A stretch of DNA of 64,000 nt from Bacteroidia bacterium (GCA_030158725.1 JAOASJ010000016.1:12616-76615), one strand, 5' to 3'; positions 1 to 18,437 are shown, counted from the stretch's first letter. The notes: generated by a model not told the origin, from the letters alone. A program made the numbers and translations.

Positions 1-132
1 GCACTAGAAAAACTAAAATTAAATCCTAACGATGTCATTATGATAGGAGATAGCTTAGAAAAAGACGTTAAAGGGGCAGAAAATTTCGGCATTAAGGCCT
101 ACCTTATAAAAGATAATACAATATTGTTTTGA
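1..132 (+). CDS. HAD-superfamily hydrolase, C-terminal fragment (gene begins upstream of the window)
   Basis: Frame 1 is open from base 1 to TGA at 130-132 and reads ALEKLKLNPNDVIMIGDSLEKDVKGAENFGIKAYLIKDNTILF. The IMIGDS..D..GA..G string resembles the C-terminal Asp motif of HAD phosphatases. The stop overlaps the TTG start of the next ORF (TTGA). Confidence 0.55.
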   Translation, partial: ALEKLKLNPNDVIMIGDSLEKDVKGAENFGIKAYLIKDNTILF

Positions 133-2249
133 AAATCAACATTTCATTTTTATTTGATAAGCAAGGAAGAAGCAAAATTCCTTTAGCCAAATCAAGGTTG
201 TTTTGGGCTGGACTTATTTTTAAATTGGTTTTATCTATTTGTTTTGCTTCTACTTATTTAAGAGATTTATTTGCTCCATTTGCGAATTATTTTATTGATT
301 CTGGATTTCAAGACCCATACACTTATTTTATGCAAAATGGCAAGGGGATTGAATTCCCTTATCCTCCATTAATGTTGTGGTTGTTTTCTTTGCCAAGAAT
401 GATATTTTGGCCTTTGTTTCCAGGATCTATTGATGCCTTTAGTGTAGTAGATAGCTTAGTTTATCGCCTACCATTAATTATAGCAGATATTGCCATTTTA
501 TTGGTACTTATCCGTTGGCTTAAAAACTATACAAGACAAGTATTAATTTGGTATTGGTTATCGCCGGTATTAATCTATATAAATTATTTTCATGGACAAT
601 TGGATGTAATCCCAATGGCGTTTATGATGGCTTCTCTTTATTTTCTTTTTAAATCAAATTGGATACAAGCATTTATATTAATTGGTTTGGCAATAGGATG
701 CAAAACAAACATGGTCTTGGTATTGCCATTTTATGTGTTATACCTCATCCGTATATCTAATGTTGATTTCAAAACCCTGTTTTTGTCTCTTATCAGTTTG
801 ATATCAGTCTTGGTTTTAATCAATCTGCCATATATTCACTCCGATGGAATGGTGCAAATGGTTTATAACAATCCAGTTCAACAGCAAATATTTGACTTAT
901 ACTATCAATTTAATAAAACACTCAGAATATATTTTATACCAGCTATTTACTTTATTTTAGTTTTGTATTATTTCACTTTTAAATTTGTAAATAGAGACCA
1001 ACTTATTTTATTTTTAGCCTTTACTTTCTTGGCTTTAACCTTAATGATAGCTCCAATGCAAGGTTGGTATTATTGGATATTGCCATTGTTGGTTTATTTT
1101 GTTATCAAACAAAGTAAAATTGAGAAGTATACTTTAATTATTTTATCGGTCTTATATTTTGTTTATTTCGGACTGATCCAAGAGTCAGATTATTTGTTCT
1201 CATTTAATTTCAATCAAAATGGGTATGAAGCTCTAGGTCCAAAATATTATGAAAAGGCACTGAATGTAAGTTTTACTTTACTGCAAACAACTTTGGTTTT
1301 ATTGGCCTACTTGGTGTTCAAAAATGGAATACGAAATAACATTCAAACAAAGTTTTTATCCCAACCATACTTAATTGGCATTGGAGGTGACTCTGCCAGT
1401 GGCAAGTCAACTTTAAGTAATGCTTTGGCAGAAGTTTTTGAGTTATCCAACACAAGTATTATACGAGGCGATGATATGCACAAATGGGAAAGGGGTAACG
1501 AAAATTGGAATGTATTTACTCATTTAGATCCAAGAGCAAATAAAATACATGAAGATTTTGAGCATGCTAAAGAGTTAAAGTCAGGCAACAGCATACAACG
1601 CAGGAATTATGACCACAGTACTGGGAAATTCACATTACCTAAATTTATTAAGCCAAATAAATTAATTGTCTTCGAAGGACTTCATTCGTTTTATTTAAAC
1701 AACCAATCGAGTGTCTATGACTTAAAGATATTTATGGAACCCGATGAAAAGTTGCGCATGTGGTGGAAAGTTCAAAGGGATGTTGCAAAAAGAGGATATT
1801 CGCCAGAAAAAGTGCTTGAGCAGTTAAGGATGCGCGAAGAGGATTCTCAAAAATATATTCGCTCTCAAGCCAATCAAGCAGATATCATCGCTCAGTTTTA
1901 TCCCTTAAATGATATTGACCCGATAAATCAAGACATTGAGCCAATTATTGGTTTAAAAATGGTTATTTCAAATGATGTAAATCTTGATCCATTAATTGAA
2001 AGATTGAATGGTATAGATTCCTTAACTCTAGACCATAAATATAATAATGAACATCAAGAACTTTACTTCAAAGGTGGTATTAGCAATGAGCATATTGAAC
2101 AGCTTGCCGACCGTTGTATTCCAGAATTAGAGGATGTGGGTATTTACAATACTAAATGGAAAGAAAATTATGAAGGAATATTACAACTTGTATCTACCTT
2201 TATTATTTTTAATTCAATGAAAAATAAAGATTTAAATGCAAAGTACTAA
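129..2249 (+). CDS. Fusion protein: polytopic GT-C-like membrane domain (GT87/DUF2029-like) plus a C-terminal phosphoribulokinase/uridine-kinase-family P-loop domain
   Basis: 706-aa ORF with a TTG start. Residues 1 to about 400 have roughly ten hydrophobic spans and the loop string GKGIEFPYPPLMLWLF, like the YPP loop motif of GT87/DUF2029 proteins. Residues about 415-600 carry Walker A IGIGGDSASGKST, then GDDMHKWER, HLDPRAN, VFEGLH and WWKVQRDVAKRGYS, in the order typical of the PRK/uridine kinase family. Confidence 0.6.
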   Translation: MKINISFLFDKQGRSKIPLAKSRLFWAGLIFKLVLSICFASTYLRDLFAPFANYFIDSGFQDPYTYFMQNGKGIEFPYPPLMLWLFSLPRMIFWPLFPGSIDAFSVVDSLVYRLPLIIADIAILLVLIRWLKNYTRQVLIWYWLSPVLIYINYFHGQLDVIPMAFMMASLYFLFKSNWIQAFILIGLAIGCKTNMVLVLPFYVLYLIRISNVDFKTLFLSLISLISVLVLINLPYIHSDGMVQMVYNNPVQQQIFDLYYQFNKTLRIYFIPAIYFILVLYYFTFKFVNRDQLILFLAFTFLALTLMIAPMQGWYYWILPLLVYFVIKQSKIEKYTLIILSVLYFVYFGLIQESDYLFSFNFNQNGYEALGPKYYEKALNVSFTLLQTTLVLLAYLVFKNGIRNNIQTKFLSQPYLIGIGGDSASGKSTLSNALAEVFELSNTSIIRGDDMHKWERGNENWNVFTHLDPRANKIHEDFEHAKELKSGNSIQRRNYDHSTGKFTLPKFIKPNKLIVFEGLHSFYLNNQSSVYDLKIFMEPDEKLRMWWKVQRDVAKRGYSPEKVLEQLRMREEDSQKYIRSQANQADIIAQFYPLNDIDPINQDIEPIIGLKMVISNDVNLDPLIERLNGIDSLTLDHKYNNEHQELYFKGGISNEHIEQLADRCIPELEDVGIYNTKWKENYEGILQLVSTFIIFNSMKNKDLNAKY

Positions 2250-3279
2250 ACAAGAACTTTTAGAATTAACAAAACTGTTTTTAAATCGAGCAGATTTAAT
2301 TCAAGGACCTGGTGGAAATACATCAGTTAAATCTGAAGATGGTTCAATGTTTATCAAAGCCTCTGGTTTTAGATTTGATGAAATGTCTTTGACTAAAGGC
2401 ATATCTGCAGTTAACTCTACTAAAATTGCCAAATATTTTTTTTCAGTTGAGCCTCTAGATAAAGTTAAGGAAGAGAAAACAATGTTGGGTGTAATTGCAG
2501 ATAATATATTAACTGATACCGATGGTAATATATTTCCCAAGCCTAGCATGGAAACTGGTTTTCATGCAATTTTGGAAAAATATGTCATTCACACACATTC
2601 TGTTTGGACCAACTTAATTAACTGTGCTCAAGAAAAGACGAGTTTAATTGAAAAGTTGAAACAGAAAACAGGGTTACAAATTGAGATTTTACCTTTTGTT
2701 AGTCCTGGTTTTGGATTGTCGTATCTGATAGCAAAAATTTTAAAGCAAAATGCTGTGAGTGGTATAAGACGTCCAGATGTTTTCTTTCTTTCCAATCACG
2801 GAATTATTTCCCACGCCCAAAGTATAGAATTGTGTCAAGATCAATTATTTAAAATAGATCAGGCCATCAAAGATTTACTTAATATCAAACTAGAATATCC
2901 GAGTATTGAGCTTAAGGAAGACGCATTACGATGGATACCTCAAAGTTCATTTGTGAATAGTGTTTTATCCAAGTATCAATGTCAATCTGATTTCTTTAAT
3001 CAGGTTTTGTTCCCAGATCAAACGGTTTTCTTTAAAGATCAAATCGCATACGATTCAATAGAAACGAATAGAAAAATTCACATATCTATACAGAAGCAGA
3101 TCAGTTATAATTGTAACTCTAGGGAAGCAGGTTCAATACATGAAACCATGACAGCCTATCTATTTATTTATGACTTCATGCACTCAAATAATATTCCCAT
3201 TGAATTAATTGGTGATTCAGAAATTGATTACATCAATAACATGGAAATGGAAAAGTACCGTAAAAAGATTCAAAATTAG
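2236..3279 (+). CDS. Class II aldolase/adducin-family protein with a C-terminal extension
   Basis: 347 aa. It has the GPGGNTSVK phosphate loop, ETGFHAIL...VIHTHS metal-binding histidines and SNHGIISHA, in the order typical of zinc-dependent class II aldolase/epimerase folds. The last ~130 aa carry no motif I recognise. It overlaps the upstream gene by 14 nt. Confidence 0.7.
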   Translation: MQSTKQELLELTKLFLNRADLIQGPGGNTSVKSEDGSMFIKASGFRFDEMSLTKGISAVNSTKIAKYFFSVEPLDKVKEEKTMLGVIADNILTDTDGNIFPKPSMETGFHAILEKYVIHTHSVWTNLINCAQEKTSLIEKLKQKTGLQIEILPFVSPGFGLSYLIAKILKQNAVSGIRRPDVFFLSNHGIISHAQSIELCQDQLFKIDQAIKDLLNIKLEYPSIELKEDALRWIPQSSFVNSVLSKYQCQSDFFNQVLFPDQTVFFKDQIAYDSIETNRKIHISIQKQISYNCNSREAGSIHETMTAYLFIYDFMHSNNIPIELIGDSEIDYINNMEMEKYRKKIQN

Positions 3280-3283
3280 TAAA

Positions 3284-4063
3284 ATGAAAATAGTGATTCC
3301 AATGTCTGGTTTAGGTAAGCGTTTTGCTGATGCTGGTTATACCGACATTAAACCGTTGATAAAGGTGCATGGAAAACCTATTATAGAATGGGTTGTTAGC
3401 ATGTTTCCTGGGGACAATGATTTTATATTTATTTGCCGAAATGAGCATTTAGAAAAAACAGAACTAAAAAGCGTTTTAAATAGAATTGCCCCAGAAGGTA
3501 AAATTATAGGTATAGATGGGCATAAATACGGACCGGTTTACGCTGTAAGTAAAGTGTTTGATTTGATAAATGATGAGGAAGAGGTTATCGTAAATTATTG
3601 CGATTTCTATCAAAAATGGGATTTCTCAGATTTCGTTTTTACAGTCAATAAGTTGAAAGTTGATGGAGCAATTCCTTGCTATACTGGTTTTCACCCCCAT
3701 TTATTACACCCACAGAACTTATATGCATCTTGTAAAGTTGATGAAAGCAAGTTTTTATTAGAAATTAGGGAGAAATTTTCTTTTGAAATAGATAAAACTA
3801 AGGCATATCACTCCGGTGGTACCTATTATTTTTCAAAGGGCAAATTTGTAAAGAAGTACTTTCAAATGATGATAGATGAAGATGTGAATTTAAATGGTGA
3901 ATACTATGTTAGTTTGGTTTATAATTTAATGTTAAGGGATAATTTAAAGGTCTTAGTTTATGACCAAGTGCCATTTTTCTGTCAATGGGGAACCCCAAGT
4001 GATCTTGAAGAATACTTAACTTGGAGTAAAATAATTAATCATTATAAAACGGAAAAAATATGA
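3284..4063 (+). CDS. Sugar-phosphate nucleotidyltransferase-fold protein (paralog 1)
   Basis: I chose the ATG at 3284 (MKIVIPMSGLGKRF), 5 nt after the upstream stop. The ORF-track start at 3209 overlaps the aldolase gene. It has an N-terminal glycine-rich NTP-binding loop and a C-terminal WGTPSDLEEY. Confidence 0.6.
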   Translation: MKIVIPMSGLGKRFADAGYTDIKPLIKVHGKPIIEWVVSMFPGDNDFIFICRNEHLEKTELKSVLNRIAPEGKIIGIDGHKYGPVYAVSKVFDLINDEEEVIVNYCDFYQKWDFSDFVFTVNKLKVDGAIPCYTGFHPHLLHPQNLYASCKVDESKFLLEIREKFSFEIDKTKAYHSGGTYYFSKGKFVKKYFQMMIDEDVNLNGEYYVSLVYNLMLRDNLKVLVYDQVPFFCQWGTPSDLEEYLTWSKIINHYKTEKI

Positions 4064-4806
4064 TTGCACTAATTCCAATGGCAGGTGCTGGGAGTCGATT
4101 TGTTGAAGCGGGTTACAACATTCCAAAACCATTGTTGCCTTTAATGGGAACACCAATGGTTGTTAAAGCGGCTTTGGCTTTACCTAGTTCTGATAAATAT
4201 ATATTTGTGGTAAGAGATTTTCAAATAAATGACTTTCAGATTGACATTCATTTGAAAAGTCATTTTTCAAATAGTGAAATCATAGTCTTAGACCATTTAA
4301 CCGAAGGTCAAGCCATTACATGTTTAGAAGCCAAGTCTTTGATTGATAATGATGAGGCTTTACTCATTGGTGCAAGCGACAATGGAATGGTATACGATAG
4401 AGCTGCGTTTCAAGAAGCAAGTATGAATGCAGATGCTTTAGTCTTTACATTTAGAAATAATCCTTCTGTTTTGGCTAAGCCACAAGCTTATGGTTGGGTT
4501 CAAGTAAATCAGTCAAATGAAGTTGAAAAAGTAAGCGTTAAAGTACCTTTGAGCAATACCCCAATGAATGACCATGCTGTGGTTGGTGCATTTTGGTTTC
4601 GCAAAGGTTCTATGTTTGTAGAGGCAGCTGAGCATATGGTTGCGAACAATAAACGTATTAATAATGAATTTTATGTTGATGAATGCATCAATGATTTAAT
4701 TGAATTAGGATATAAAGTTAAAGCTTTTGAAATTGAACATTATGTTTGTTGGGGTACACCAAATGATTATGAAACTTTTAATTATTGGGAAAAGTTTTTT
4801 AAATGA
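4060..4806 (+). CDS. Sugar-phosphate nucleotidyltransferase-fold protein (paralog 2)
   Basis: It begins MIALIPMAGAGSRF and has a C-terminal WGTPNDYETF. It is clearly paralogous to the preceding ORF. Its start overlaps the upstream stop (ATGA). Confidence 0.6.
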   Translation: MIALIPMAGAGSRFVEAGYNIPKPLLPLMGTPMVVKAALALPSSDKYIFVVRDFQINDFQIDIHLKSHFSNSEIIVLDHLTEGQAITCLEAKSLIDNDEALLIGASDNGMVYDRAAFQEASMNADALVFTFRNNPSVLAKPQAYGWVQVNQSNEVEKVSVKVPLSNTPMNDHAVVGAFWFRKGSMFVEAAEHMVANNKRINNEFYVDECINDLIELGYKVKAFEIEHYVCWGTPNDYETFNYWEKFFK

Positions 4807-4821
4807 TGAGGATGCAATGAC

Positions 4822-4852
4822 AAATCGATAAATCGATAAATCGATAAATTGA
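4822..4852. repeat. Tandem 8-nt repeat array AAATCGAT x3 plus degenerate AAATTGA
   Basis: Read directly: aaatcgat aaatcgat aaatcgat aaattga. It is an imperfect inverted partner of the array at 5294-5331. Confidence 0.9.
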
Positions 4853-4902
4853 AAGTTTTTTCTTAATAGAATATTTGTTGTAAATTTATCTAAAATTAAA
4901 TT

Positions 4903-5271
4903 ATGAAATACTTATTCTCTTTTGAAAAATTAAATGTTTGGATTGCAAGTAAGGACCTAGCGCTATTGATTTATAAAGGTTCAGAAGGTTTTCCAAAATC
5001 AGAAAATTTTGGTTTAGTAAACCAAATCCGCCAATCATCTATTTCAATATCTTCAAACATAGCTGAAGGTAATTCTAGGAAGTCCAAAACCGACAGGTTA
5101 AGGTTTTTTAACATTGCATATTCTAGTTTGATGGAAATGTTAAGTCAATCGATTATTGCTTACGAATTAGGATTTATTACAAGTGATAATTACCATAAAA
5201 TACGTGAATTAAGCAATGAGATTTCGAACAAACTTATTGCATTAATGAACAAACAGGAAACTTTCCAATAA
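4903..5271 (+). CDS. Four-helix-bundle protein (23S rRNA intervening-sequence protein / Avd-like family)
   Basis: 122 aa. FEKLNVWIASKDLALLIY, FGLVNQIRQSSISISSNIAEGNSR and FFNIAYSSLMEM match the family hallmarks (L.vw..a, QlrRa..Si..NIAEG, GS..E). Confidence 0.85.
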   Translation: MKYLFSFEKLNVWIASKDLALLIYKGSEGFPKSENFGLVNQIRQSSISISSNIAEGNSRKSKTDRLRFFNIAYSSLMEMLSQSIIAYELGFITSDNYHKIRELSNEISNKLIALMNKQETFQ

Positions 5272-5293
5272 CCTATTTATTGAAATTTAAATG

Positions 5294-5331
5294 TCAATTT
5301 ATCAATTTCACAGTTTATCAATTTATCAATT
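5294..5331. repeat. Tandem 8-nt repeat array TCAATTTA (five units, two degenerate)
   Basis: Read directly: tcaattta tcaatttc acagttta tcaattta tcaatt. The reverse complement TAAATTGA equals the last unit of the upstream array and differs by one base from TAAATCGA. Confidence 0.9.
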
Positions 5332-5340
5332 CTCCACATT

Positions 5341-6054
5341 ATGCTCTCAATCATCCTACCTTGTTACAATGAAAAAGACAATTTAGTTGCTCTATTCGAA
5401 CGCCTTGATTTGTTGGTTAAAGCAAGTGATGAAATAGAAATTGTTTTAGTTAATAATGGTTCAAATGATGGATCAGATATAGTATTTGAACAAGAGGTAT
5501 TAAGTCGAAGTAAAGAAATATTTAAAATTGTTCATGTCAAAGAAAATAAAGGGTATGGCTTCGGAATCCTTAGCGGCCTAAGGGCAGCAAAAGGCAATGT
5601 ATTGGCTGTGACTCATGCGGATCGACAAACCGATCCTATGGATGTTTTAAAAGCATACGAAATATATAGAAGTAAAGGTGACCTTAATTTATTGGTTAAA
5701 GGGTTCCGAAAAAACAGAAAAATTTCAGAAGCTGTTTTTTCATATGGAATGGGACTATTGGCATCAATTGTTTTAGGAAGTAGATTAACCGAAATAAATG
5801 CACAGCCTAAACTATTTAGTAAATCGTTTTTTGACACCTACAAGAATGATGCACCAAATGACTTTTCGCTTGATCTTTATTTACTATATAAGGCAAAAAA
5901 ACACGGTCAAATTATTGATTTTCCAGTATACTTTTCCAAAAGGGTAGCCGGTGAGGCTAAAGGTGGAAGTGGTAGTTCATTTAAAGTAAAATGGAAATTA
6001 ATAAAGCGCAGCTTCTCATATATATTCGAATTAAAAAGGTCATTAACTAAATAA
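5341..6054 (+). CDS. GT2 glycosyltransferase, polyprenyl-phosphate sugar synthase type (DPM1/ArnC/GtrB-like)
   Basis: It begins MLSIILPCYNEKDNL, followed by VNNGSNDGS, GYGFGILSGL and THADRQTDP. At 237 aa it has the size typical of this subgroup. Confidence 0.75.
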   Translation: MLSIILPCYNEKDNLVALFERLDLLVKASDEIEIVLVNNGSNDGSDIVFEQEVLSRSKEIFKIVHVKENKGYGFGILSGLRAAKGNVLAVTHADRQTDPMDVLKAYEIYRSKGDLNLLVKGFRKNRKISEAVFSYGMGLLASIVLGSRLTEINAQPKLFSKSFFDTYKNDAPNDFSLDLYLLYKAKKHGQIIDFPVYFSKRVAGEAKGGSGSSFKVKWKLIKRSFSYIFELKRSLTK

Positions 6055-6067
6055 ATATCTAACTAGA

Positions 6068-7642
6068 ATGAAGCAATTTTTTAAGAAATACACCATTGAA
6101 TTGGTTTTTGGCTTGGTATTTATTGGACTTTCCTTGCGCTTAAATCTGCAGTTTTTATTAGGATCTAACATCAACACAATTATTGCAGGACACGACGAAT
6201 ATATAGCCGTTAAAGAAGTGTATTCAATACTTCACCCAATCTCACTTAAACATTTTGTAATGGCAGTTATTAGTGGTAACGCTTTATATTATGGTCGCAT
6301 TATGTTTTACATTGATGCAATTGTCGCATTTTTACCTTTTAAAATCTGGGGTACAACAGGTATGGTATTGGCCATTAGAATGTTTCATGCAATTTGTATT
6401 CTGTCTGCATTTCTGATTTTAAGTAAAACCTTTTTGGAAACCAATAGACAAAGGGTCTTGTTTTTTATTGGGTCGTTCTGTTTGTATTTTACAATGTACT
6501 TCATTATGATGCCAAAGCCTGAGCCTCTGCAACTTTTGATTTTGACATTGTTTTTACATCAACTTAAAAAATCCAATTGGTCATTTGGAAAGCATTTTAT
6601 TCTTTTAGGAATAGCATACGGACTTAAATTTAATGTCCTGTTAATTCTACCAATTGTATTTCTTTTACCTCTTATAAAGTCTGGTAAATTGAATATTACT
6701 AATTTAGTCTTACCAGGATTTCTATCTGTTTTTTATTTTATTATCGGTGTTATAATTGCAATACCTTGCCTGATATTAAGTCCTATAAAACCAATCTTTT
6801 TAAGCACTTATTTGCATGAAACCTTTGGGGGTACAGAAAAAGGATATGATTCAGCAACATTAAGTTTTAATGATTGGATGAGCTCTGGCCTTGGTGGTTC
6901 TTATTTGGGACATTGGACATTGGCTTACCCATTCTTAGTGTTTGTTTTGGTATTAATCTTTATTAATTTCAAAAAGTCATTTAAGACACAGAATTTTTCT
7001 TCAATTTTATTCATGGTAATGGGCTTGATTTTTGCTTTGGTTATCATGTTTAAAACCAAAAGACTATGGCCTCATTATTTATGGACTGCCTATATCTTCA
7101 TGCTATTAGGCATGATAGGTTCCCTACCAATTTTGGTAGATACATATATCAAAAAGATTCAGATAATAATAGTGTCTCTATTTGTCAGCTCTTCATTGTT
7201 TTTTTATTGTTATCGGGAGTTACCTTTGTATTTGGGTTTAGATCAAAGACCCGAAGTTCAGAATAATATTAGATGGAGCGAATTGGCCATCCAATATATT
7301 AACACAAAGTATAAAGGTTCTAAAATAGGTACGGATGGCTCATTTTTGTATCCATTTAAGGATTTTGTTGAGGTAGATTTGTATCATCCTTTTGCAACGA
7401 CTAGGCCAAAGGAAGCCGAAACACCATACATGTGGTATGTTGATGCTCCACAAAAGATTTGGGATGATTCAAATAAATTAGTGGTTTTCTATAAACGCTT
7501 ACCACCAAGAATGCTTAAAGAAAATCCTAATGTTTATGTTGGTAGACATCAAGAATTAAATACTTTATTTATTGAGAAAACAATGAAAGAGTTTGATTTA
7601 GATACTACTATAGGAGAATTACATATTTATAAACGCCGTTGA
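6068..7642 (+). CDS. Polytopic GT-C-like membrane glycosyltransferase (ArnT/PMT-like), tentative
   Basis: 524 aa with more than 10 hydrophobic spans. The first loop after TM1 carries AGHDEYIAVKEVYSIL, which resembles the DE..Y motif of the GT39/GT83 families. It lies 13 nt downstream of the GT2 gene. Confidence 0.5.
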   Translation: MKQFFKKYTIELVFGLVFIGLSLRLNLQFLLGSNINTIIAGHDEYIAVKEVYSILHPISLKHFVMAVISGNALYYGRIMFYIDAIVAFLPFKIWGTTGMVLAIRMFHAICILSAFLILSKTFLETNRQRVLFFIGSFCLYFTMYFIMMPKPEPLQLLILTLFLHQLKKSNWSFGKHFILLGIAYGLKFNVLLILPIVFLLPLIKSGKLNITNLVLPGFLSVFYFIIGVIIAIPCLILSPIKPIFLSTYLHETFGGTEKGYDSATLSFNDWMSSGLGGSYLGHWTLAYPFLVFVLVLIFINFKKSFKTQNFSSILFMVMGLIFALVIMFKTKRLWPHYLWTAYIFMLLGMIGSLPILVDTYIKKIQIIIVSLFVSSSLFFYCYRELPLYLGLDQRPEVQNNIRWSELAIQYINTKYKGSKIGTDGSFLYPFKDFVEVDLYHPFATTRPKEAETPYMWYVDAPQKIWDDSNKLVVFYKRLPPRMLKENPNVYVGRHQELNTLFIEKTMKEFDLDTTIGELHIYKRR

Positions 7643-8859
7643 AAAATACCTGTTATTATTTTGTAGATGATATTGAAACATCTTTTGTAATCAATGATAT
7701 CAAGAGGTTTTCAAAACAATATGAAAATATTGTCTTGTTTTCGGCCGAGATTATTGATGATAAGAGTGGATTGCCTACAAACGTTAGCGTTATTGACAAT
7801 TTTATAGATTGGTCTAAATTTAACAAGCTAAAGATTGTTATTACTCAATTTTGGACTTTAATTTATTTGTACATTAGTGAAATTTTAGCACTAAAAAAGT
7901 TTCTTCCATTGAAAGAATCAATAGCTCTTTTGTGTTCTAATATTTATAAAGCAGAAGAAGTTATAAGACATTTAAATGAAAGAAAAATACACGTCAAATC
8001 GGATAGTTTATTTTATTCTTTTTGGTTCTATGACTGTATATATCTTGCCTATTTGAAAAGAATTCATTTTGCCCCAAAAATTATAACTAGAGCACATGGG
8101 GGAGATGTTTTTGAAGAAAGAAGTTCACTAAGAGGAAAAGTTCTGTTTAGAAATTTTCAGATGAAACATTTCGATTATGTTTTTTCTGTTTCCAAAATTG
8201 GAGCTGATTATCTTAGAAAAAAATATGTAAAATTTCAATCAAAGATACAAGTATCCTATTTAGGTTCAGATGAGCCTAAACACTTAAATGAAATAAATAA
8301 TGAAGTGTTTACTTTGGTTAGTTGCGCGAAAATCCGAGATATAAAACGCGTTTACTTAATTGCAGAGGCCTTAATGTACATCAATTTTCCTTTAGTTTGG
8401 TACCATTTGGGAGATGAAAATTTAGATGCACATAATGATCCTACAGTGGAAATTTATGTTCAAAACATGCTTAAATTAAAGGAAAACAAGCATGTTAAAT
8501 CAATACAGTTGGGTCAATTATCGAATGAAGAAATATTTGAATTTTACACTAAGACTAAATGTAATTTATTTATCAGTTTGTCAGCAACTGAAGGAATACC
8601 AGTTAGTATGATGGAAGCCATAAGTTTTGGGTTGCCAATTTTATCAACAGATGTTGGTGGTTGCAATGAAATTGTAAATAATATTACTGGAATTTTAATT
8701 CCTGAAAATTTGCCAGCGGAATCTATTGCAAAGTCAATAATAGAATTTAAAGATTCTGCAATGAATATCAATGATTACAGGAGAAATATTCGAACTTTTT
8801 GGATAGAAAATTTTAACCAAACCACAAACTATTCTAAGTTTTTTGAACTAATAAAATGA
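7639..8859 (+). CDS. GT4-family glycosyltransferase
   Basis: The C-terminal SLSATEGIPVSMMEAISFGLPILSTDVGGCNEIV is the E-x7-E GT-B signature. The TTG start overlaps the upstream stop. Confidence 0.75.
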   Translation: MKNTCYYFVDDIETSFVINDIKRFSKQYENIVLFSAEIIDDKSGLPTNVSVIDNFIDWSKFNKLKIVITQFWTLIYLYISEILALKKFLPLKESIALLCSNIYKAEEVIRHLNERKIHVKSDSLFYSFWFYDCIYLAYLKRIHFAPKIITRAHGGDVFEERSSLRGKVLFRNFQMKHFDYVFSVSKIGADYLRKKYVKFQSKIQVSYLGSDEPKHLNEINNEVFTLVSCAKIRDIKRVYLIAEALMYINFPLVWYHLGDENLDAHNDPTVEIYVQNMLKLKENKHVKSIQLGQLSNEEIFEFYTKTKCNLFISLSATEGIPVSMMEAISFGLPILSTDVGGCNEIVNNITGILIPENLPAESIAKSIIEFKDSAMNINDYRRNIRTFWIENFNQTTNYSKFFELIK

Positions 8860-9866
8860 ACAATCAAGTTGAAATAATCGCTGAAATAGCGCAAGCCCAT
8901 GATGGTAGTCTTGGTATTGCGCATTCATATATAGATGCACTCCATGGAACTGGAGTAGATACAATTAAATTCCAAATGCATATAGCATCTCATGAGAGTA
9001 GTGCTTACGAACAGTTTAGAGTAAATTTTAGCTATGAGGATAAAACTAGATTTGATTATTGGGACAGAATGGGATTTACCTTTGAACAATGGGTTGGGTT
9101 AAAACAACATTGTGAAGATAAAGGCTTTAAATTTTTATGCTCTCCTTTTTCAATAAAAGCAGTAGAATGGATGGAGCAACTAGGTGTTGATAGGTATAAG
9201 ATTGCAAGTGGAGAAATAACCAATTATCTAATGATTGATCGTATTTGTAGCACAGGTAAATCTATACTATTGTCTAGTGGAATGAGCAGTTATGCGGAAA
9301 TTCTAGAATCGGTGGATTTTATTCATTCACATAATGGTAAATTTGAAGGCGTGTTTCAGTGTACAACTTCATATCCAACTCCACCAGAAAAATATGGTTT
9401 GAATGTATTGGCAGAGCTAAAAAATAAAACCAATGTTAAGGTTGGTTTAAGCGACCATTCTGGAGAGGTTTTTGCACCACTTGCAGCTGTTGCTTTAGGT
9501 GCTCAAATGCTTGAAATGCATGTTGTTTTTGATAAGAAAATGTTTGGGCCAGATGCAGCATCTTCTTTAACTATTTCAGATTTTAGAACCCTTTGTGAAG
9601 GAGTAAGGAAAATTGAAAAGGCATTAAGCAATCCTATTCAAAAAGACCATGTAGAGGCTTATAAAGAAATGAAGGTAATGTTTGGAAAGTCTATAACTGC
9701 TTCAAAAGATTTGAACAAAGGCCATATAATTCGAATCGAAGATTTAGAAACTACTAAGCCAGGAGATAAAGGTATTATGGCAAAAGATTACAGCAAGATT
9801 ATTGGAAAGGAATTGAATAAAGATATTTCAATCCATCAATTTATACAAAACAGTGATTTAGTATGA
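8856..9866 (+). CDS. neuB: Nonulosonic acid synthase (NeuB/LegI family; N-acetylneuraminate or legionaminate synthase)
   Basis: 336 aa. It shows IAEIAQAHDGSLGIAHSYIDA, YKIASGEITNY and GLSDHSGE, plus a C-terminal SAF-like segment (IIRIEDLETTKPGDKGI). Confidence 0.85.
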   Translation: MNNQVEIIAEIAQAHDGSLGIAHSYIDALHGTGVDTIKFQMHIASHESSAYEQFRVNFSYEDKTRFDYWDRMGFTFEQWVGLKQHCEDKGFKFLCSPFSIKAVEWMEQLGVDRYKIASGEITNYLMIDRICSTGKSILLSSGMSSYAEILESVDFIHSHNGKFEGVFQCTTSYPTPPEKYGLNVLAELKNKTNVKVGLSDHSGEVFAPLAAVALGAQMLEMHVVFDKKMFGPDAASSLTISDFRTLCEGVRKIEKALSNPIQKDHVEAYKEMKVMFGKSITASKDLNKGHIIRIEDLETTKPGDKGIMAKDYSKIIGKELNKDISIHQFIQNSDLV

Positions 9867-11020
9867 AAAAAAGAAAAATTTGTGTCATAATAACAGCTCG
9901 CCCAAGTTATAGTAGGGTAAGAACTGCTTTAATTGCTATTAACAATCATCCCGATTTGGAATTGCAATTGGTTGTGGCGGCTTCTGCATTGCTTGATCGA
10001 TATGGTTCAACCATAAATTACATTGAGGCTGATGGTTTTAAAATTGCCGAGAAGGTGTATATGATCATTGAAGGTGCAACTTTAACCAGTTCAGCTAAAA
10101 CGACAGGTATAGGAATTATGGAATTAGCCACAACGTTTGATAATTTAAAACCTGATATGGTATGTACCATAGGTGATCGTTATGAAACTATGGCAACAGC
10201 AATTGCAGCAAGTTATATGAATATTCCTTTGGTCCATATACAAGGGGGTGAAGTAACTGGAAATATAGATGAGAAAGTTAGACATGCAATTACCAAACTT
10301 TCAGATTTGCATCTAGTATCAAATGATGATGCAAAACAGAGGTTAATAAAAATGGGTGAGTATGAAGATAAAATTCATATTACAGGTTGTCCAAGTATAG
10401 ATATTGCTAAAATGGTTTTAGATCAACCAGAACTTGATTTTGATCCTTGTAATAAATATGGTGGAGTTGGTAAATATATTGATACCACTAAAGACTATAT
10501 TGTTGTCATGCAACACCCTGTGACCACTGAATTTGAAATGGCAAAATCTCAGGCCGAGAGTTTAATTAAGATAGTTCATGAATTAGATATGCCAGTTTTT
10601 TGGTTTTGGCCAAATCCTGATGCTGGTAGTGATGGTACAAGTAGCGCATTAAGAACACATAGAGAAGAGAATCCCGATAACCATATTCGTTTCTTTAAAA
10701 ATTTAGAAGGTGCTGATTTCCTTAAATTACTATACCATTCTAAATGTTTAATAGGAAATAGCAGTGTAGGAATTCGCGAATGTTCTTATTTAGGAATTCC
10801 AGTTGTAAATATTGGAAGCAGACAAAACAGGCGCTTAAGAGGTAAAAATGTAATTGATACAGATTACAATCAAGAAAACTTAAGAAATGCCATTTTAAAA
10901 CAAGTAAACCATGGTCATTATCCAATTGAAAATTTATATGGTAATGGTCATGCAGGTACAGCAATTGCTGATGTGTTAGTAAATGCCGGAACAGAAATTA
11001 AAAAAGTAATTAGTTATTAA
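9863..11020 (+). CDS. neuC: Hydrolysing UDP/GDP-N-acetylhexosamine 2-epimerase (NeuC/LegG family)
   Basis: 385 aa. It shows ICVIITARPSYSRV, GDRYETMATAIAAS, HIQGGEVTGNIDEKVRHAITKLS and GNSSVGIRE. Confidence 0.85.
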   Translation: MKKRKICVIITARPSYSRVRTALIAINNHPDLELQLVVAASALLDRYGSTINYIEADGFKIAEKVYMIIEGATLTSSAKTTGIGIMELATTFDNLKPDMVCTIGDRYETMATAIAASYMNIPLVHIQGGEVTGNIDEKVRHAITKLSDLHLVSNDDAKQRLIKMGEYEDKIHITGCPSIDIAKMVLDQPELDFDPCNKYGGVGKYIDTTKDYIVVMQHPVTTEFEMAKSQAESLIKIVHELDMPVFWFWPNPDAGSDGTSSALRTHREENPDNHIRFFKNLEGADFLKLLYHSKCLIGNSSVGIRECSYLGIPVVNIGSRQNRRLRGKNVIDTDYNQENLRNAILKQVNHGHYPIENLYGNGHAGTAIADVLVNAGTEIKKVISY

Positions 11021-11024
11021 AAAT

Positions 11025-12221
11025 ATGTCAAAAACGATGCACGGACTTCCTGAGGAAGTTATTTTTTGTAAAAAATGTTGTATCTCTAATCAGAGACCAA
11101 GTACAAAGAGAGAATTTTCAAAAAAAACAAGTAAAGATACAGATACCATTGGTTTAGGTGCCGATGGAATTTGTGATACTTGTAAATGGTTTGAGTTTAA
11201 AAAGACCATTGATTGGGAACAAAGAGAAAAACAATTGGAAGAATTATGTAATAAATTCAGAAGAAATGATGGAACTTATGATGTAATTGTACCTTCTAGT
11301 GGTGGAAAAGATAGTTTTTATGTAGCCCATCAATTGAAATACAAATATGGAATGAATCCACTTACTGTTACATGGGCTCCACATCAATATACAGAAATAG
11401 GTTGGAAAAATTTTGAAAGTATGATTGATGCTGGTTTTGACAATGTTTTGGTAACTCCAAATGGCAAAGTACATAGAGTGCTTACTAGATTGGCTTTCGA
11501 AAATTTAGTTAATCCTTTTCAACCATTTATTATTGGACAAAAAAATGTGGCTCCTAGAGCAGCATTACAATATGGTGTTCAGTTAATCATGTATGGTGAA
11601 AATCAAGCTGAGGCTCATAATAAATTAGAAGAAAATTTTAGTCCACTTATGGACATTTCTCACTTCTGTAAAAAAGAAGGTGAAGAATTATATTTTGGAG
11701 GTGTTCATATCAATGATTTAAAGAATCATGGTGTTGAAGAAAAAGATCTTTATTTATATAAACCATTAGATGAGAAAGATATTATCAATGCAGGTTTAGA
11801 GGTACATTTCTACAGTTTCTACAAAAATTGGTCTCCTCAAGAGAATTATTATTACGCAATGGAGCACTCAGGTTTTGAATCAAATCCTGATGGTAGAACT
11901 GAAGGTACTTATACTAAATTTGTTAGTTTAGATGATAAAATTGATGGTCAACATTACTACACCATGTTTATTAAATTTGGACAAGGTCGTGCCATGAATG
12001 ATGTTAATAGAGACATAAGAGATGGTTTTATAAGCCGTGAAGAAGGTATTGAATTAATTAACAAGTATGATGGTGAATTCCCTAAAAAATACTTCCAAGA
12101 AGTGTTAGATTACATGGGAATAAGCGAAGAACGCTATTGGGAAGTAATTGATAATGCACGTTCTCCACATTTATGGGACAAAGTAAATGGAGAGTGGGTC
12201 TTGAAGCATAAGACTGTATAA
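11025..12221 (+). CDS. N-acetyl sugar amidotransferase (WbpG/WbuX/PseA family, PP-loop ATPase)
   Basis: It has an N-terminal Cys cluster (CKKCCISNQRPS ... CDTCKW), the PP-loop VPSSGGKDS, and the conserved IMYGENQAE. Confidence 0.8.
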   Translation: MSKTMHGLPEEVIFCKKCCISNQRPSTKREFSKKTSKDTDTIGLGADGICDTCKWFEFKKTIDWEQREKQLEELCNKFRRNDGTYDVIVPSSGGKDSFYVAHQLKYKYGMNPLTVTWAPHQYTEIGWKNFESMIDAGFDNVLVTPNGKVHRVLTRLAFENLVNPFQPFIIGQKNVAPRAALQYGVQLIMYGENQAEAHNKLEENFSPLMDISHFCKKEGEELYFGGVHINDLKNHGVEEKDLYLYKPLDEKDIINAGLEVHFYSFYKNWSPQENYYYAMEHSGFESNPDGRTEGTYTKFVSLDDKIDGQHYYTMFIKFGQGRAMNDVNRDIRDGFISREEGIELINKYDGEFPKKYFQEVLDYMGISEERYWEVIDNARSPHLWDKVNGEWVLKHKTV

Positions 12222-12304
12222 AATCAAGTTTAGATTTGTATTGCATTAAATGGGTAGTAATTTAATTTCTTAATTATTTTACCTATTCAATAGGTGTATT
12301 TTTT

Positions 12305-13054
12305 ATGAAAAGAGTAATAGCAAGATTAGATATTAAAGGCAATAGATTGGTTAAAGGTATCCATATGGAAGGATGGAGATTTTTGCCAAACCATCCCAAT
12401 GATTATTGTTACAAATACTATTTGCAAGGCGTTGATGAGATAATTTATGTCGATGCTGTTGCTAGCTTATACAACAGAGATTCACTCAAAGAAATCATAA
12501 AAAAAACAACAGATAATGTTTTTGTTCCAATTACAGTTGGAGGAGGTATTCGTTCACTCGAAGATGCCTACGATATTTTAAGAAGTGGAGCCGACAAAGT
12601 TGCAATCTGTACACAGGCCGTTAAGAACCCAGAAATAATATCAGAAATAGCCGGCAAATTTGGAAATCAATGCATGGTACTGTCTATTCAAGCAAAGAAG
12701 AATCAGTCTGGTTCCTATTCGGTTTGGTATGATGTTGCTAGAGAAAAAACAGAAATTGATGTTATTGAATGGGCTCAAAAAGGGGAAGAACTAGGTGCCG
12801 GTGAAATTCTTTTAACATGCATTGACCATGAAGGTTTAGAAAGAGGGATGAATACAGAACTTATTTCTATGGTTTCTAAAGCAGTAAATATACCTGTGAT
12901 AGCTAGCGGCGGATTAGGAAAATCAGGTCATTTTGTAGATGCTATAGAGAGCGGTGCCGATGCGGTGGCTATTGCGAAAGCATTGCATTATGACAAACTT
13001 AATATTCAAGATATTAAGAACGAAGCAAGAAGTAAAAATATAAAAGTACGTTGA
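12305..13054 (+). CDS. hisF: HisF-like cyclase subunit paralog (glycosyl amidation-associated, WbuZ-type)
   Basis: It shows VIARLDIKGNRLVKG, PITVGGGIRS, ADKVAI, the Asp-containing CIDHEG and VIASGGLG. The context is polysaccharide synthesis, not a histidine operon. Confidence 0.8.
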   Translation: MKRVIARLDIKGNRLVKGIHMEGWRFLPNHPNDYCYKYYLQGVDEIIYVDAVASLYNRDSLKEIIKKTTDNVFVPITVGGGIRSLEDAYDILRSGADKVAICTQAVKNPEIISEIAGKFGNQCMVLSIQAKKNQSGSYSVWYDVAREKTEIDVIEWAQKGEELGAGEILLTCIDHEGLERGMNTELISMVSKAVNIPVIASGGLGKSGHFVDAIESGADAVAIAKALHYDKLNIQDIKNEARSKNIKVR

Positions 13055-13686
13055 TGACAAAAAATGTTTCAATAATCGACTATGGGATGAGCAATCTTCT
13101 TAGTATTTGCCGTGCTTTTGAGCATGTTGGAGCAAATGTAAAAATAGTAAGAACTGAAGCAGAAATTCTGAATTCAGATTACCTAGTACTTCCAGGAGTT
13201 GGTGCATTTCCAGATGGAATGAATGAATTAAAGTCAAGAAATTTGATAAATCCTATTAGGAACTTCTCATTAAAGGAAAGACCACTTTTAGGCATTTGTT
13301 TGGGCATGCAGATGTTGCTATCCAAAGGATTTGAACATAAAGAAACTGAGGGTTTAGGAATCATAGAAGGAGATGTATTGCCTTTGCCTAAAAATATGCC
13401 CAATTTTAAAGTGCCAAATATTAATTGGCATGCAATAAATGAACCTTCAAATGGCAAATGGTCGAATTCTCTATTAAGTGATACAAAGATTGAAACATGT
13501 TTTTATTTTGTACACTCCTATTTTGCAAATCCAAAAGACACTAATGATGTTCTAGCTGAAAGTAGCTTTGGTACTCTGAAGTTTGCTGCAGCAGTCAAAA
13601 GAAACAATATTTGTGGAACACAATTTCACCCAGAAAAGAGTGGTGAGGATGGGTTAAAATTGTTACAAAAGTTTTTAGAGTTATAA
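13054..13686 (+). CDS. hisH: HisH-like glutamine amidotransferase subunit paralog (WbuY-type)
   Basis: It shows IIDYGMSNL, LPGVGAF, the catalytic Cys in LGICLGMQML, and FHPEKSG. I preferred the ATG at 13054 over the TTG at 13051. Confidence 0.8.
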   Translation: MTKNVSIIDYGMSNLLSICRAFEHVGANVKIVRTEAEILNSDYLVLPGVGAFPDGMNELKSRNLINPIRNFSLKERPLLGICLGMQMLLSKGFEHKETEGLGIIEGDVLPLPKNMPNFKVPNINWHAINEPSNGKWSNSLLSDTKIETCFYFVHSYFANPKDTNDVLAESSFGTLKFAAAVKRNNICGTQFHPEKSGEDGLKLLQKFLEL

Positions 13687-13691
13687 AGAAA

Positions 13692-14381
13692 ATGAAAGTT
13701 CTTTGTATAATTCCAGCAAGGGGAGGCTCGAAAGGAATTCCTAAGAAAAATATTATTGATGTCAATGGTAAGCCTTTGATAGCGTATTCTATAGAACCTG
13801 CAATTGAAGCACAAAAGCTTGGCATAATTGATAAGGTTATAGTATCCACTGATTCTGAAGAAATAGCAAATATTTCATTAAAATATGGCGCTGAAATTCC
13901 TTTTTTAAGGCCATCTGAAATCTCTGGTGATAAAGCTAAATCAGTCGAATTCATAATGCATGCACTCGACTTTTATAGCAAGCAAGGAGTTAATTACGAC
14001 ACGGTATTATTGCTTCAACCAACTTCACCTCTTCGCACATTAAACGATTTATTGGCATCTTTAAATTTATATAAGGAAGCTGAAAATGACAGTTTAATTT
14101 CTGCATATGAAGAAGAATATATAAATGACTTGGTAATTTATAGAATGGGTGAAGATGGGAAAACGTCAATACCAGTGAACCATTTGCACAACAAGGGAGT
14201 TAGAAGACAAGAACATGGTTCTTTATATGTGAGAAACGGATGTATTTATATAAGTTCTGCTGAATTAATTGGTAAAGGATATGTTATCGGTGAGACTCCT
14301 TTAATGTATATTATGGAAAAGAATAAATCCGTAAACGTTGATACAATGGAAGATTTGGAGTTGCTTAGAAAATTATTATGA
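13692..14381 (+). CDS. neuA: CMP-nonulosonic acid synthetase (acylneuraminate cytidylyltransferase family)
   Basis: 229 aa. It shows CIIPARGGSKGIPKKNI, VSTDSEEI, LLQPTSPLR and RRQE. Confidence 0.8.
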   Translation: MKVLCIIPARGGSKGIPKKNIIDVNGKPLIAYSIEPAIEAQKLGIIDKVIVSTDSEEIANISLKYGAEIPFLRPSEISGDKAKSVEFIMHALDFYSKQGVNYDTVLLLQPTSPLRTLNDLLASLNLYKEAENDSLISAYEEEYINDLVIYRMGEDGKTSIPVNHLHNKGVRRQEHGSLYVRNGCIYISSAELIGKGYVIGETPLMYIMEKNKSVNVDTMEDLELLRKLL

Positions 14382-15304
14382 AGATCGGAATTTTAGAACC
14401 AGCAGACTTCTCGAGTATAGCTTCTCATAAGTTATCTAAGATTGGAAGTATTGAAAACTATTCTGGTGAAAAATTGGAAGAATTTTTATGTAACAAGGAG
14501 ATTATTTTTGTTCGTTTAAACTTCGATATAAATAAGGGTTTTTTAGAAGCTGCACCAAATTTAAAGTACATATGTTCACCGACCACTGGCTTAAATCATA
14601 TTGATGTTAATTATTGTCAATCTAAAGGGATTGAAATAATTTCGTTAAAAGGTGAAACTGATTTTTTAAATACTATTAGGGCTACTCCAGAACATACTCT
14701 GGGTCTAATTTTAGCTTTAAAAAGAAATTACAATTTTGCTTTTTTAAAAAGCGATAACTCAGAATGGAATAGAAACCCTTATAGGGGCTATGAGATTTAT
14801 GGTAGTAAAATTGGTATTGTTGGTTTTGGAAGAGTAGGAAAAATTCTATCTTCTTATTTAAAAAACATGGGTGCTTCTGTTGCTTTCTATGATATAAATA
14901 AAGATATTCAAGAGGAAGGTGTTCACAAATTCGATTCAATAGAATCTTTAATTGATGCTTGCGAGACAGTAGTTTTATGCAGCAGTTATACTGTTGAATA
15001 CGGATCTATCATTAATGAAAAGGAAATTGATGCATTAAAGAATAAATATTTTATTAATACAGCCAGGGCAGAGTTGACAAATGAATCATATTTATCTCAA
15101 CGAGCTTTAGAAGGCCATTTTAAAGGAATAGCAATTGATGTGATTCAAAATGAGCAAAGTGCTCAAAATAATTTGAAATCATGGTTAGAAGCAGCTGATA
15201 AATACAATGTAATTGTTACTCCACATATCGGTGGAGCTACATATTCATCTATGAATAGAACGGAGGAGTTTATCAGCGATAAATTATTAATGAGTTTTGA
15301 GTAA
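14378..15304 (+). CDS. D-isomer-specific 2-hydroxyacid dehydrogenase family protein
   Basis: It has the NAD loop IGIVGFGRVGK, ARAEL and the catalytic-region VTPHIGGAT. Its start overlaps the neuA-like stop (ATGA). Confidence 0.7.
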   Translation: MKIGILEPADFSSIASHKLSKIGSIENYSGEKLEEFLCNKEIIFVRLNFDINKGFLEAAPNLKYICSPTTGLNHIDVNYCQSKGIEIISLKGETDFLNTIRATPEHTLGLILALKRNYNFAFLKSDNSEWNRNPYRGYEIYGSKIGIVGFGRVGKILSSYLKNMGASVAFYDINKDIQEEGVHKFDSIESLIDACETVVLCSSYTVEYGSIINEKEIDALKNKYFINTARAELTNESYLSQRALEGHFKGIAIDVIQNEQSAQNNLKSWLEAADKYNVIVTPHIGGATYSSMNRTEEFISDKLLMSFE

Positions 15305-18435: not shown

Positions 18436-18437
18436 TT

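Follow-up and report, generated by a model that had tools for sequence, protein, structure and literature searches.

What pathway is encoded by the run of sugar-phosphate enzymes at the start of a 64,000-nucleotide stretch of DNA from a Bacteroidia bacterium (GCA_030158725.1 JAOASJ010000016.1:12616-76615; the whole stretch is referred to here as the window)? A reading of the sequence alone (the original prediction) had described positions 1-4806 as a five-gene activation module comprising a HAD phosphatase, a kinase, a class II aldolase-family protein (ALD) and two nucleotidyltransferases (NTases; NT1 and NT2). The five genes are real, but they are only the core of a longer cassette, with about ten genes in all, which reaches beyond this region on both sides, in the order u401, P191, HAD, GT-C::PRK, ALD, NT1, NT2, GT2, MEM524, GT4, where GT-C::PRK is a fusion of a putative membrane glycosyltransferase (GT) to a phosphoribulokinase (PRK) domain. 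We propose, with confidence that we would put at about even, that the cassette would be a conserved, self-contained glycan-building unit of Bacteroidota, fed by D-ribulose-5-phosphate (Ru5P) via ribulose-1,5-bisphosphate (RuBP).

Loci were collected from species-representative genomes with ALD as the query, and each open-reading frame (ORF) in them was scored against the window proteins. All 16 Bacteroidota loci with an ALD at least 49% identical (L001 and L006-L020; the canonical loci) held every cassette gene within reach of the contig, in the same order, and the complete stretch from HAD to GT4 was present in 11 loci. At least 19 further genomes keep the gene order, with proteins that are 42-97% identical, and Aurantibacillus circumpalustris carries the cassette in identical order. 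GT2 directly follows NT2 in every canonical locus with a long enough contig, MEM524 is present in the 13 canonical loci whose contigs extend that far, and GT4 comes next in 12 of these. Of the 22 Bacteroidota-type loci examined, all but L015, where the contig begins inside the PRK domain, have the fusion gene and ALD side by side, whilst NT1 lies next to ALD in the canonical loci and in three rearranged versions of the cassette (L002, L024 and L080), with an IVP gene in between in L016. The first of the rearranged versions, in Flexibacter flexilis (L002), sits outside any polysaccharide locus and reads ALD, NT1, NT2, a membrane protein, HAD and a GtrA::GT-C::PRK fusion, with GT2 and P192 on the opposite strand; the second, in a Cytophagales metagenome-assembled genome (L024), reads NUDIX, fusion, ALD, NT1; the third, on a contig labelled Patescibacteria (L080), reads NT2, P192, HAD, fusion, ALD, NT1, GtrA, a methyltransferase, a membrane protein, GT2 and a double GT4.

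The genes therefore co-occur outside the source genome, the point on which the original prediction had been staked beforehand, and the neighbourhood is conserved across Bacteroidota loci. In a curated search none of the five genes reached an NCBIfam equivalog cut-off, and full-text literature searches found no description of this gene combination. As the same gene order recurs across genomes, the cassette is best treated as a unit rather than as chance packing. Start/stop overlaps are by themselves commonplace in operons, and the status of the cassette as a unit rests on the gene order conserved elsewhere. We give very little credence to the opposing view, that the five genes merely share a variable O-antigen or capsule locus, each independent of the others, and that their short junctions reflect operon packing: it can draw on the mosaic make-up of the window locus, ~34 kb of glycan genes, and on flanks that vary between genomes, but identical genes in identical order recur despite the changing flanks, so that the synteny contradicts it, as do the Flexibacter set outside any polysaccharide locus and the near-constant pairing of fusion and ALD. 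Nor, at protein identities of 42-97%, do these loci look like recent copies of a single mobile element.

By homology the kinase is truly of the PRK type, but the gene predicted simply as a kinase encodes a 706-aa fusion, in which a multi-pass membrane protein of ~405 aa precedes the PRK domain. The latter matches PF00485 (aa 415-596, E = 1.7e-40, 139 bits vs. a cut-off of 22), contains the Walker A sequence GDSASGKS and carries a DD-x-H-x-x-x-R motif, which we take to be of the PRK rather than the uridine-kinase type. In phmmer searches of PDB sequences it recovered 9qko (E = 1e-43), the Synechococcus PRK 6hzk (6e-37) and the archaeal PRK 5b3f (3e-31), with uridine kinases at ~1e-11, and it is ~45% identical to cyanobacterial PRKs across 182-186 aligned residues. 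The AlphaFold2 (AF2) model of the fusion (mean pLDDT 86.5) aligned in Foldseek over 297-371 columns to full-length plant-type, cyanobacterial and archaeal PRKs (target TM-score 0.60-0.77), over 284 columns to the R. sphaeroides PRK 1a7j, and over only ~190 to uridine kinases. In the model, the C-terminal ~300 aa thus form a complete PRK fold, with the C-terminal domain that is missing from uridine kinases.

Sixty fusion homologs show no substitution at ten residues of the domain (D448, D449, H451, R455, Y494, H496, K547, R550, D551 and R555), and in a set of 113 homologs, with 42-97% identity to the window protein, each of these positions is conserved to at least 98%. In the archaeal enzyme MhPRK, Arg59, Tyr98 and His100 bind the Ru5P phosphate, and in the R. 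sphaeroides enzyme RsPRK, His45 and Lys165 bind Ru5P whilst Arg168 binds ATP (Kono et al. 2017, PMC5241800). By motif alignment to 6hzk and matching spacing, R455, Y494, H496, H451, K547 and R550 of the fusion are the counterparts of these ligand residues, and all six are invariant in the 60 homologs; RsPRK Arg49 was also among the Ru5P-binding residues checked, the counterparts of which are conserved in the fusion family. The PRK domain thus appears to keep every reported Ru5P-binding residue and is predicted to be a Ru5P kinase.

It is possible, although we judge it improbable, that the PRK-like domain has a substrate other than free Ru5P, for example a different ketose phosphate, a nucleoside, or a polyprenol or lipid-linked intermediate handled by the fused GT-C, and that the activated sugar comes from a different precursor. 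Heterotrophs have PRK homologs of unknown role, for example prkB of E. coli, and a kinase fused to a membrane protein would be well placed to act on a substrate at the membrane. The score against the NCBI phosphoribulokinase model is under its cut-off (given below), and the closest solved relatives are paralogs termed "cyanobacteria-specific PRK" (9qko and 9qkn, one of them deposited as "uridine kinase"), for which we found no published function in the literature. These points favour another substrate; against it stand the invariance of all the reported phosphate- and sugar-binding residues, the PRK-type motif and the neighbouring HAD, which independently indicates RuBP. A more distant archaeal PRK, only ~30% identical to photosynthetic PRKs, is yet strictly Ru5P-specific (PMC5241800).

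Compared with the PRKs of the Calvin cycle and of methanogens (6hzk and 5b3f), the cassette domain shares the full-length fold, the Walker A sequence and all the reported Ru5P-binding residues, but it is fused behind a putative membrane glycosyltransferase of 405 aa. It differs from the Calvin-cycle enzyme also in its setting, a glycan locus in presumably heterotrophic Bacteroidota, and in scoring just under the curated cut-off. No RuBisCO was found among the window ORFs scanned (1-34,339).

A second pointer to RuBP comes from the HAD phosphatase. Only 43 aa of it lie in the window, matching PF13242 (E = 1.7e-10) as well as PF13419 and PF00702, but the fragment is identical to the C-terminus of a 221-aa HAD on a metagenomic contig (L086) that differs from the window at 4 positions in 7600 nt, from which it follows that the source genome has P191 and the 221-aa HAD immediately upstream of window position 1. 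The best NCBIfam match of the full-length protein is NF053830, ribulose-1,5-bisphosphate 5-phosphatase (184 bits, E = 2.5e-54; next family 115 bits), and the same family ranks first for three orthologs, including that of the source genome (184-188 bits, E ~1e-55; next family 115-125 bits). The haloarchaeal HAD that defines this family hydrolyses only RuBP, yielding ribulose-1-phosphate (Ru1P), and its gene shares an operon with that of a class II (FucA-type) Ru1P aldolase (Sato et al. 2022, PMC9700705). The cassette HAD is therefore a likely relative of NF053830, not a certified member, that points to RuBP independently of the kinase. By profile score, the HAD and the PRK domain are both close relatives of their two curated families and certified members of neither. 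The expectation that the module handles keto-sugar phosphates, first drawn from its aldolase- and PRK-like folds, appears to have been right.

ALD matches the class II aldolase family PF00596 (aa 7-211, E = 6.6e-15, 55.9 bits vs. a cut-off of 22.2), with the motifs GPGGNTS (aa 24-30) and HTHS (aa 119-122). The metal ligands E106, H119, H121 and H188 and the phosphate loop G26-G27-N28-x-S30 are invariant in 55 homologs, so that the loop and histidines are as intact as had been claimed, and the extra C-terminal part, estimated at ~130 aa, is present as a conserved extension of ~136 aa (aa 212-347) in which P260, D261, Q262, E339 and R342 are invariant. The AF2 model has a mean pLDDT of 94.6, with the extension confidently modelled; in Foldseek, searched with the whole model, only the N-terminal domain found matches (3m4r at E = 2.7e-11, then YgbL, FucA, DrdA and AraD), and the C-terminal domain had no PDB fold match. 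ALD thus resembles the class II aldolases and epimerases (RhaD, FucA, the L-ribulose-5-phosphate 4-epimerase AraD, DrdA and MtnB) in its N-domain fold, metal ligands and phosphate loop, but differs from them in its C-terminal domain, and it approaches no curated subfamily cut-off. The possibility that it is the N-terminal half of a RhaEW-type aldolase/SDR (TIGR02632, NF0061xx) was rejected, the best score being 46.7 bits vs. 831, over aa 12-215 only, with no SDR domain.

Homologs of ALD that are ~30% identical and ~350 aa long occur in Firmicutes and Atribacteria (L025-L085) with none of the cassette partners nearby. In 19 of these loci the homolog directly follows an L-rhamnose-isomerase-like gene, often with an FGGY kinase and a mutarotase-sized gene, that is, in the slot of RhaD; in 36 the gene before it encodes a class II aldolase of two domains (437 aa), and genes for an SDR and a PHP-like protein usually lie close by. 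These relatives may be an unannotated family of ketose-1-phosphate aldolases. Because they occupy the RhaD slot of rhamnose-type operons, the baseline chemistry of the ALD family is probably retro-aldol action on ketose-1-phosphates, which would fit either Ru1P or RuBP as a substrate.

An alternative account, which we regard as unlikely, is a bacterial counterpart of the non-carboxylating pentose bisphosphate route: PRK, HAD and ALD would run a catabolic shunt from Ru5P through RuBP and Ru1P to dihydroxyacetone phosphate (DHAP) and glycolaldehyde, with ALD a true Ru1P aldolase, and NT1 and NT2 would supply the GT2 and GT-C proteins, an unrelated glycosylation system, by activating some other sugar-1-phosphate from outside this route. 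The haloarchaeal operon of an RuBP-specific HAD and a class II Ru1P aldolase does exactly this (PMC9700705), and the cassette HAD is closest to that phosphatase family. ALD itself matches the Ru1P aldolase family NF053831 weakly (E = 2e-4), but with only 20.7 bits against a cut-off of 300. Its relatives fill the aldolase slot of rhamnose-type catabolic operons, with the same catalytic residues in both clades, and three loci (L021-L023) have PRK and ALD with no NTases nearby; yet NT1 lies beside ALD in every rearranged version of the cassette, and no glycolaldehyde-handling enzyme was seen among the cassette genes. Nor would catabolism give any obvious purpose to the GT-C fusion, or any obvious reason for the coupling to two NTases and the fixed order with GT2, GT-C and GT4 in ~20 genomes. 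We therefore favour remodelling of the sugar by ALD over its cleavage to DHAP and glycolaldehyde, since NT1 stays beside ALD in each type of arrangement (with only the IVP gene between them in L016), and since cleavage would leave two dedicated NTases without a dedicated substrate.

The two NTases are paralogs over their full length, as had been suggested (24% identity, E = 2e-26). NT2 exceeds the gathering score of PF00483 (E = 1.8e-8, 34.7 bits vs. 21.2) and is far under all NCBIfam cut-offs, the best being rmlA_long at 40 bits vs. 320; its PMAGxGSRF, KPLL and GASDNG motifs are conserved in 17 orthologs. NT1 is more divergent, with a weak match to PF12804 (20.5 bits vs. 27) and a PDB match to 4evw (E = 1.3e-7), and its G-x-G-x-R-F and K-P-L signature and C-D motif are conserved in 20 orthologs. 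Judged by these motifs, both look catalytically competent.

The cassette also appears to carry a polyprenyl-phosphate GT2, two GT-C-type membrane proteins (the fused domain and MEM524) and two probable GT-B transferases. GT2 scores 62 bits against PF00535 and falls far under the cut-offs of all NCBIfam equivalogs; its top PDB sequence matches are the dolichyl-phosphate-mannose-synthase-type DPMS 5mlz (E = 1.2e-12), GtrB 5ekp (4.9e-10) and ArnC, all of which make polyprenyl-phosphate sugars. In the fusion, a crude hydropathy scan of the N-terminal domain gave at least eight transmembrane (TM) segments, a K/R-rich N-terminus and a 67-aa first loop. The membrane domain of the window protein matches GT87 weakly (E = 0.008, 16.3 bits vs. 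a cut-off of 25), but among 60 fusion homologs, counting matches at E ≤0.001, 18 matched the GT87 family PF09594 (best 2.6e-6) and 10 the Alg6/Alg8 family PF03155 (best 3.9e-10), and precomputed matches to PF26314 (MptA_B) exist for many. Its invariant residues include F76-P-Y-P79, D120, H155-G-Q-L-D159 and K192. On this profile evidence, the membrane domain fused to PRK would belong to the GT-C superfamily. MEM524 had no significant Pfam match (DUF6056 weakly, E = 0.004, 16.4 bits vs. 27) and no NCBIfam or PDB sequence match, and a MEM524 profile likewise found nothing among PDB sequences; hhalign aligned it to the fusion family with a probability of 88% (E = 3e-6, 213 columns; profile columns 78-323 of MEM524 to 66-289 of the fusion). 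G41-H-D-E-Y45 in its first long loop is invariant.

Together, GT2, the GT-C proteins, GT4 and u401 read as the parts list of a periplasmic glycosylation system dependent on a polyprenyl-phosphate sugar. Such systems include GtrA-GtrB-GtrC, ArnC-ArnT and the mycobacterial Ppm1-PimE-MptA/B and DPA-Emb pathways. The cassette resembles them in its DPM1/GtrB/ArnC-type GT2, in GT-C proteins that match GT87, MptA_B and Alg6/8, in the GtrA of some versions and, as in the assembly of phosphatidylinositol mannosides (PIMs) and lipomannan, in the cytoplasmic GT4s alongside. It differs in carrying its own dedicated precursor pathway and in the fusion of one GT-C to the first enzyme of that pathway, and its 237-aa GT2 is without the C-terminal TM helices of GtrB and ArnC.

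At the other end of the cassette, P191 (or P192; ~190 aa) directly precedes HAD in 15 loci, occurs also in L002 and L080, and lies at 6666-7241 of the L086 contig, whilst u401 (401 aa) was found in 12 loci, in most directly before P191. No Pfam, NCBIfam or PDB sequence match was found for P191, even with a 17-sequence profile, and its family comprises more than 7000 clusters in the protein collection, all "hypothetical" and with no Pfam domain. Its invariant charged residues are H8, R9, E26, D28, R30, H40, K66, E71, D90, R110, E113, E115, D133, E160 and D182. A guess from its motif, that P191 is a GDPD/PLC-like phosphodiesterase, found no support (hhalign probability of 0.2% vs. E. coli UgpQ).

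How might these parts work together? Every step that we propose is based on homology and synteny. The cytoplasmic PRK domain would phosphorylate Ru5P at C1 to give RuBP, and HAD would take off the 5-phosphate, leaving Ru1P. ALD, with or without P191, would then remodel the pentulose-1-phosphate by metal-dependent retro-aldol chemistry, the likeliest reaction being an AraD-like epimerisation, although the steps of HAD and ALD may come in the reverse order. NT1 and NT2, as a heteromer or in two successive steps, would produce a nucleotide-activated pentose or pentulose, which the DPM1/GtrB/ArnC-like GT2 would put on polyprenyl phosphate; after flipping, the PRK-fused GT-C domain and MEM524 would attach the sugar to a glycan on the periplasmic face, whilst the GT-B enzymes (GT4 and possibly u401) would work on the cytoplasmic side.

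Several observations weigh against this reading. The 1-phosphate of a ketose is not anomeric, and simply nucleotidylated Ru1P would be no usable donor for a DPM1-like GT2; the scheme therefore lacks one chemical step or more. A glycosidic phosphate must arise before GT2, and the extra domain of ALD, P191 or the second NTase could take part. The catalytic residues of ALD are the same in the cassette clade and in the catabolic Firmicutes relatives, so the sequence fits plain aldol cleavage just as well as AraD-like epimerisation. Neither of the two enzymes that point to RuBP reaches its curated family: HAD scores 184-188 bits where the NF053830 equivalog cut-off is 330, though it is the best family by ~60-70 bits, and the PRK domain scores 208.6 bits against the NF005655 cut-off of 236, so NCBI would not call the fusion a phosphoribulokinase. 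Foldseek with the whole fusion model returned only PRK or uridine-kinase structures among the top 50 listed matches, with no GT-C, which is why the GT-C assignment rests on sequence profiles. In the three Cytophagaceae loci L021-L023 the fusion and ALD occur by themselves, plus GtrA in L023, with no HAD or NTase within 1.3-10 kb. Finally, a search of the 64-kb window, L086 and eleven canonical loci found no GtrA homolog; only the variant loci L002, L023 and L080 have GtrA, fused or adjacent, which speaks for the reading.

A scheme that employs all components can be sketched, speculatively. Ru5P would pass through RuBP to Ru1P, ALD would epimerise it and NT1 would make an NDP-1-pentulose; a 1,2-cyclic phosphate would then lead, possibly by way of P191, to a pentulose-2-phosphate, from which NT2 would make an NDP-2-pentulofuranose; GT2 would convert this to a polyprenyl-phosphate-pentulose, and the GT-C proteins would transfer it. 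The cassette might then represent the first known route to a nucleotide-activated and subsequently polyprenyl-phosphate-linked pentulofuranose (xylulose or ribulose) or related pentofuranose, and the first anabolic, glycan-building use of PRK and RuBP outside CO2 fixation, a claim that we ourselves consider doubtful and advance only tentatively.

The nearest known logic is that of NDP-heptose activation, by the kinase HddA or HldE, the HAD phosphatase GmhB and the nucleotidyltransferase HddC or HldE. The original prediction drew this parallel, and it is strengthened by the PRK-type kinase and by a HAD closest to an RuBP 5-phosphatase: both routes would phosphorylate C1, remove the distal phosphate with a HAD enzyme and nucleotidylate with an enzyme of the NTP_transferase fold. 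The added statement that the cassette is built from unrelated folds holds for the kinase, a P-loop PRK rather than a GHMP- or ribokinase-type enzyme, but not for the HAD and NTases, which share the folds of GmhB and HddC. The cassette differs further in that its predicted substrate is a ketopentose phosphate and not a heptose-7-phosphate, and in that the C1 phosphate of the ketose is not anomeric, with an aldolase-family enzyme and a second NTase interposed. No match to NCBIfam heptose-pathway models was found among the cassette proteins scanned. The other close parallel, the haloarchaeal non-carboxylating pentose bisphosphate pathway (RuBP phosphatase Halxa_2271 and Ru1P aldolase Halxa_2272; Sato et al. 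2022, PMC9700705), shares the closest HAD family, placed near a class II aldolase-family gene, and the implied RuBP. In the cassette, by contrast, RuBP would come from PRK and not from ribose-1,5-bisphosphate isomerase, ALD belongs to another class II subfamily with an extra C-terminal domain, and the context is anabolic (NTases and glycosyltransferases) rather than one of nucleoside catabolism.

The cassette features in the window are collected in Table 1.

Table 1 Features of the cassette and its insertion in the window, with the basis of each assignment.
Feature	Position	Strand	Basis or remark
HAD phosphatase, C-terminal 43 codons and stop	1..132	+	remainder of 221 aa upstream of window
Fusion protein, N-terminal multi-pass membrane domain, putative GT-C-type glycosyltransferase	129..1340	+	sequence profiles
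Fusion protein, C-terminal phosphoribulokinase (PRK) domain, aa ~409-706	1353..2249	+	PF00485
ALD, class II aldolase-family protein, 347 aa, conserved ~136-aa C-terminal domain	2236..3279	+	PF00596
NT1, nucleotidyltransferase 1, 259 aa, divergent sugar-phosphate NTase	3284..4063	+	weak PF12804; NT2 paralog
NT2, nucleotidyltransferase 2, 248 aa	4060..4806	+	PF00483
23S-rRNA-IVP / bAvd-like four-helix-bundle gene, insertion, not a cassette member	4903..5271	+	PF05635, E = 5e-32
GT2 glycosyltransferase, 237 aa, polyprenyl-phosphate-sugar synthase type	5341..6054	+	PF00535
MEM524, 524-aa multi-pass membrane protein, distant GT-C-domain paralog	6068..7642	+	hhalign
GT4 glycosyltransferase, 406 aa, last conserved cassette gene	7639..8859	+	PF00534, PF13692

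The junctions between the first five genes are almost exactly as first described. The HAD frame is open at the left window edge and ends with TGA at 130-132, overlapping, in the TTGA at 129-132, the TTG start (129-131) of the fusion ORF, which ends with TAA at 2247-2249; the ATG of ALD at 2236 gives a 14-nt overlap (2236-2249) with it. ALD stops with TAG at 3277-3279 and NT1 starts with ATG at 3284, leaving the four nucleotides TAAA and not the 5-nt gap that had been reported. The stop of NT1 and start of NT2 share the ATGA at 4060-4063, and the NT2 stop occupies 4804-4806.

The IVP gene between NT2 and GT2 is missing from 15 of the 16 canonical loci, and a homolog lies between ALD and NT1 in L016; since it is absent from other cassette loci and differently placed in L016, it looks like a small mobile insertion. 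Around it are inverted 8-nt tandem repeats, GATAAATC in three copies at 4819-4850 and repeats of the type TCAATTTA at 5294-5341, with 30-nt arms that are 80% complementary and 449 nt apart. At L023 11183-12859, in a Cytophagaceae metagenome-assembled genome, what comes after GtrA, fusion and ALD is not the NTases but a TMEM220-family gene and a gene for a 3-dehydroquinate-synthase-like sugar-phosphate cyclase. On the L086 contig, positions 620-6661, between u401 and P191, hold an apparent second module of the polyprenyl-phosphate type, with a 537-aa DUF6044 membrane protein, FdtA, an LbH acetyltransferase, a DegT aminotransferase and a 309-aa PgfS/ArnC-like GT2 with C-terminal TM helices.

The cassette forms the 5′ end of the ~34-kb glycan locus, which also encodes NeuB, NeuC, WbuX, HisF/HisH-like partners, a CMP-sugar synthetase, a carbamoyltransferase and many GT4s. 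A nonulosonic-acid block at 8856-15304 contains a NeuB-like protein, NeuC and the WbuX amidotransferase (both above curated cut-offs), HisF-like, HisH-like and CMP-sugar synthetase-like proteins and a D-2-hydroxyacid dehydrogenase. It is followed by two adjacent 520-aa ORFs with no Pfam match (15297-16859 and 16873-18435), further ORFs without a family (18432-20127) and the carbamoyltransferase (21549-23423). Recent horizontal acquisition was considered and rejected, as G+C content is uniform at 28-34% across the window, with no compositional island.

The cassette is a testable candidate for the activation of ketopentose or unusual pentofuranose residues, and its soluble proteins are small and should express easily, with at least two cultured species among the carriers. 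Several of its families are without a characterised member, namely P191, u401, the C-terminal domain of ALD, the NT1/NT2 clade and MEM524. According to a review of E. coli O-antigens, no nucleotide-precursor genes are known for xylulofuranose residues (O95 and O97; PMC7685785), a gap on which a pentulofuranose route, if true, would bear. If our reading is correct, both the nucleotide sugar and the polyprenyl-phosphate sugar donor made by the cassette would be new, and PRK and RuBP, textbook markers of the Calvin cycle, would have been recruited in heterotrophic Bacteroidota for a surface glycan, in which case PRK genes in metagenomes would need a check of their context before being read as markers of autotrophy.

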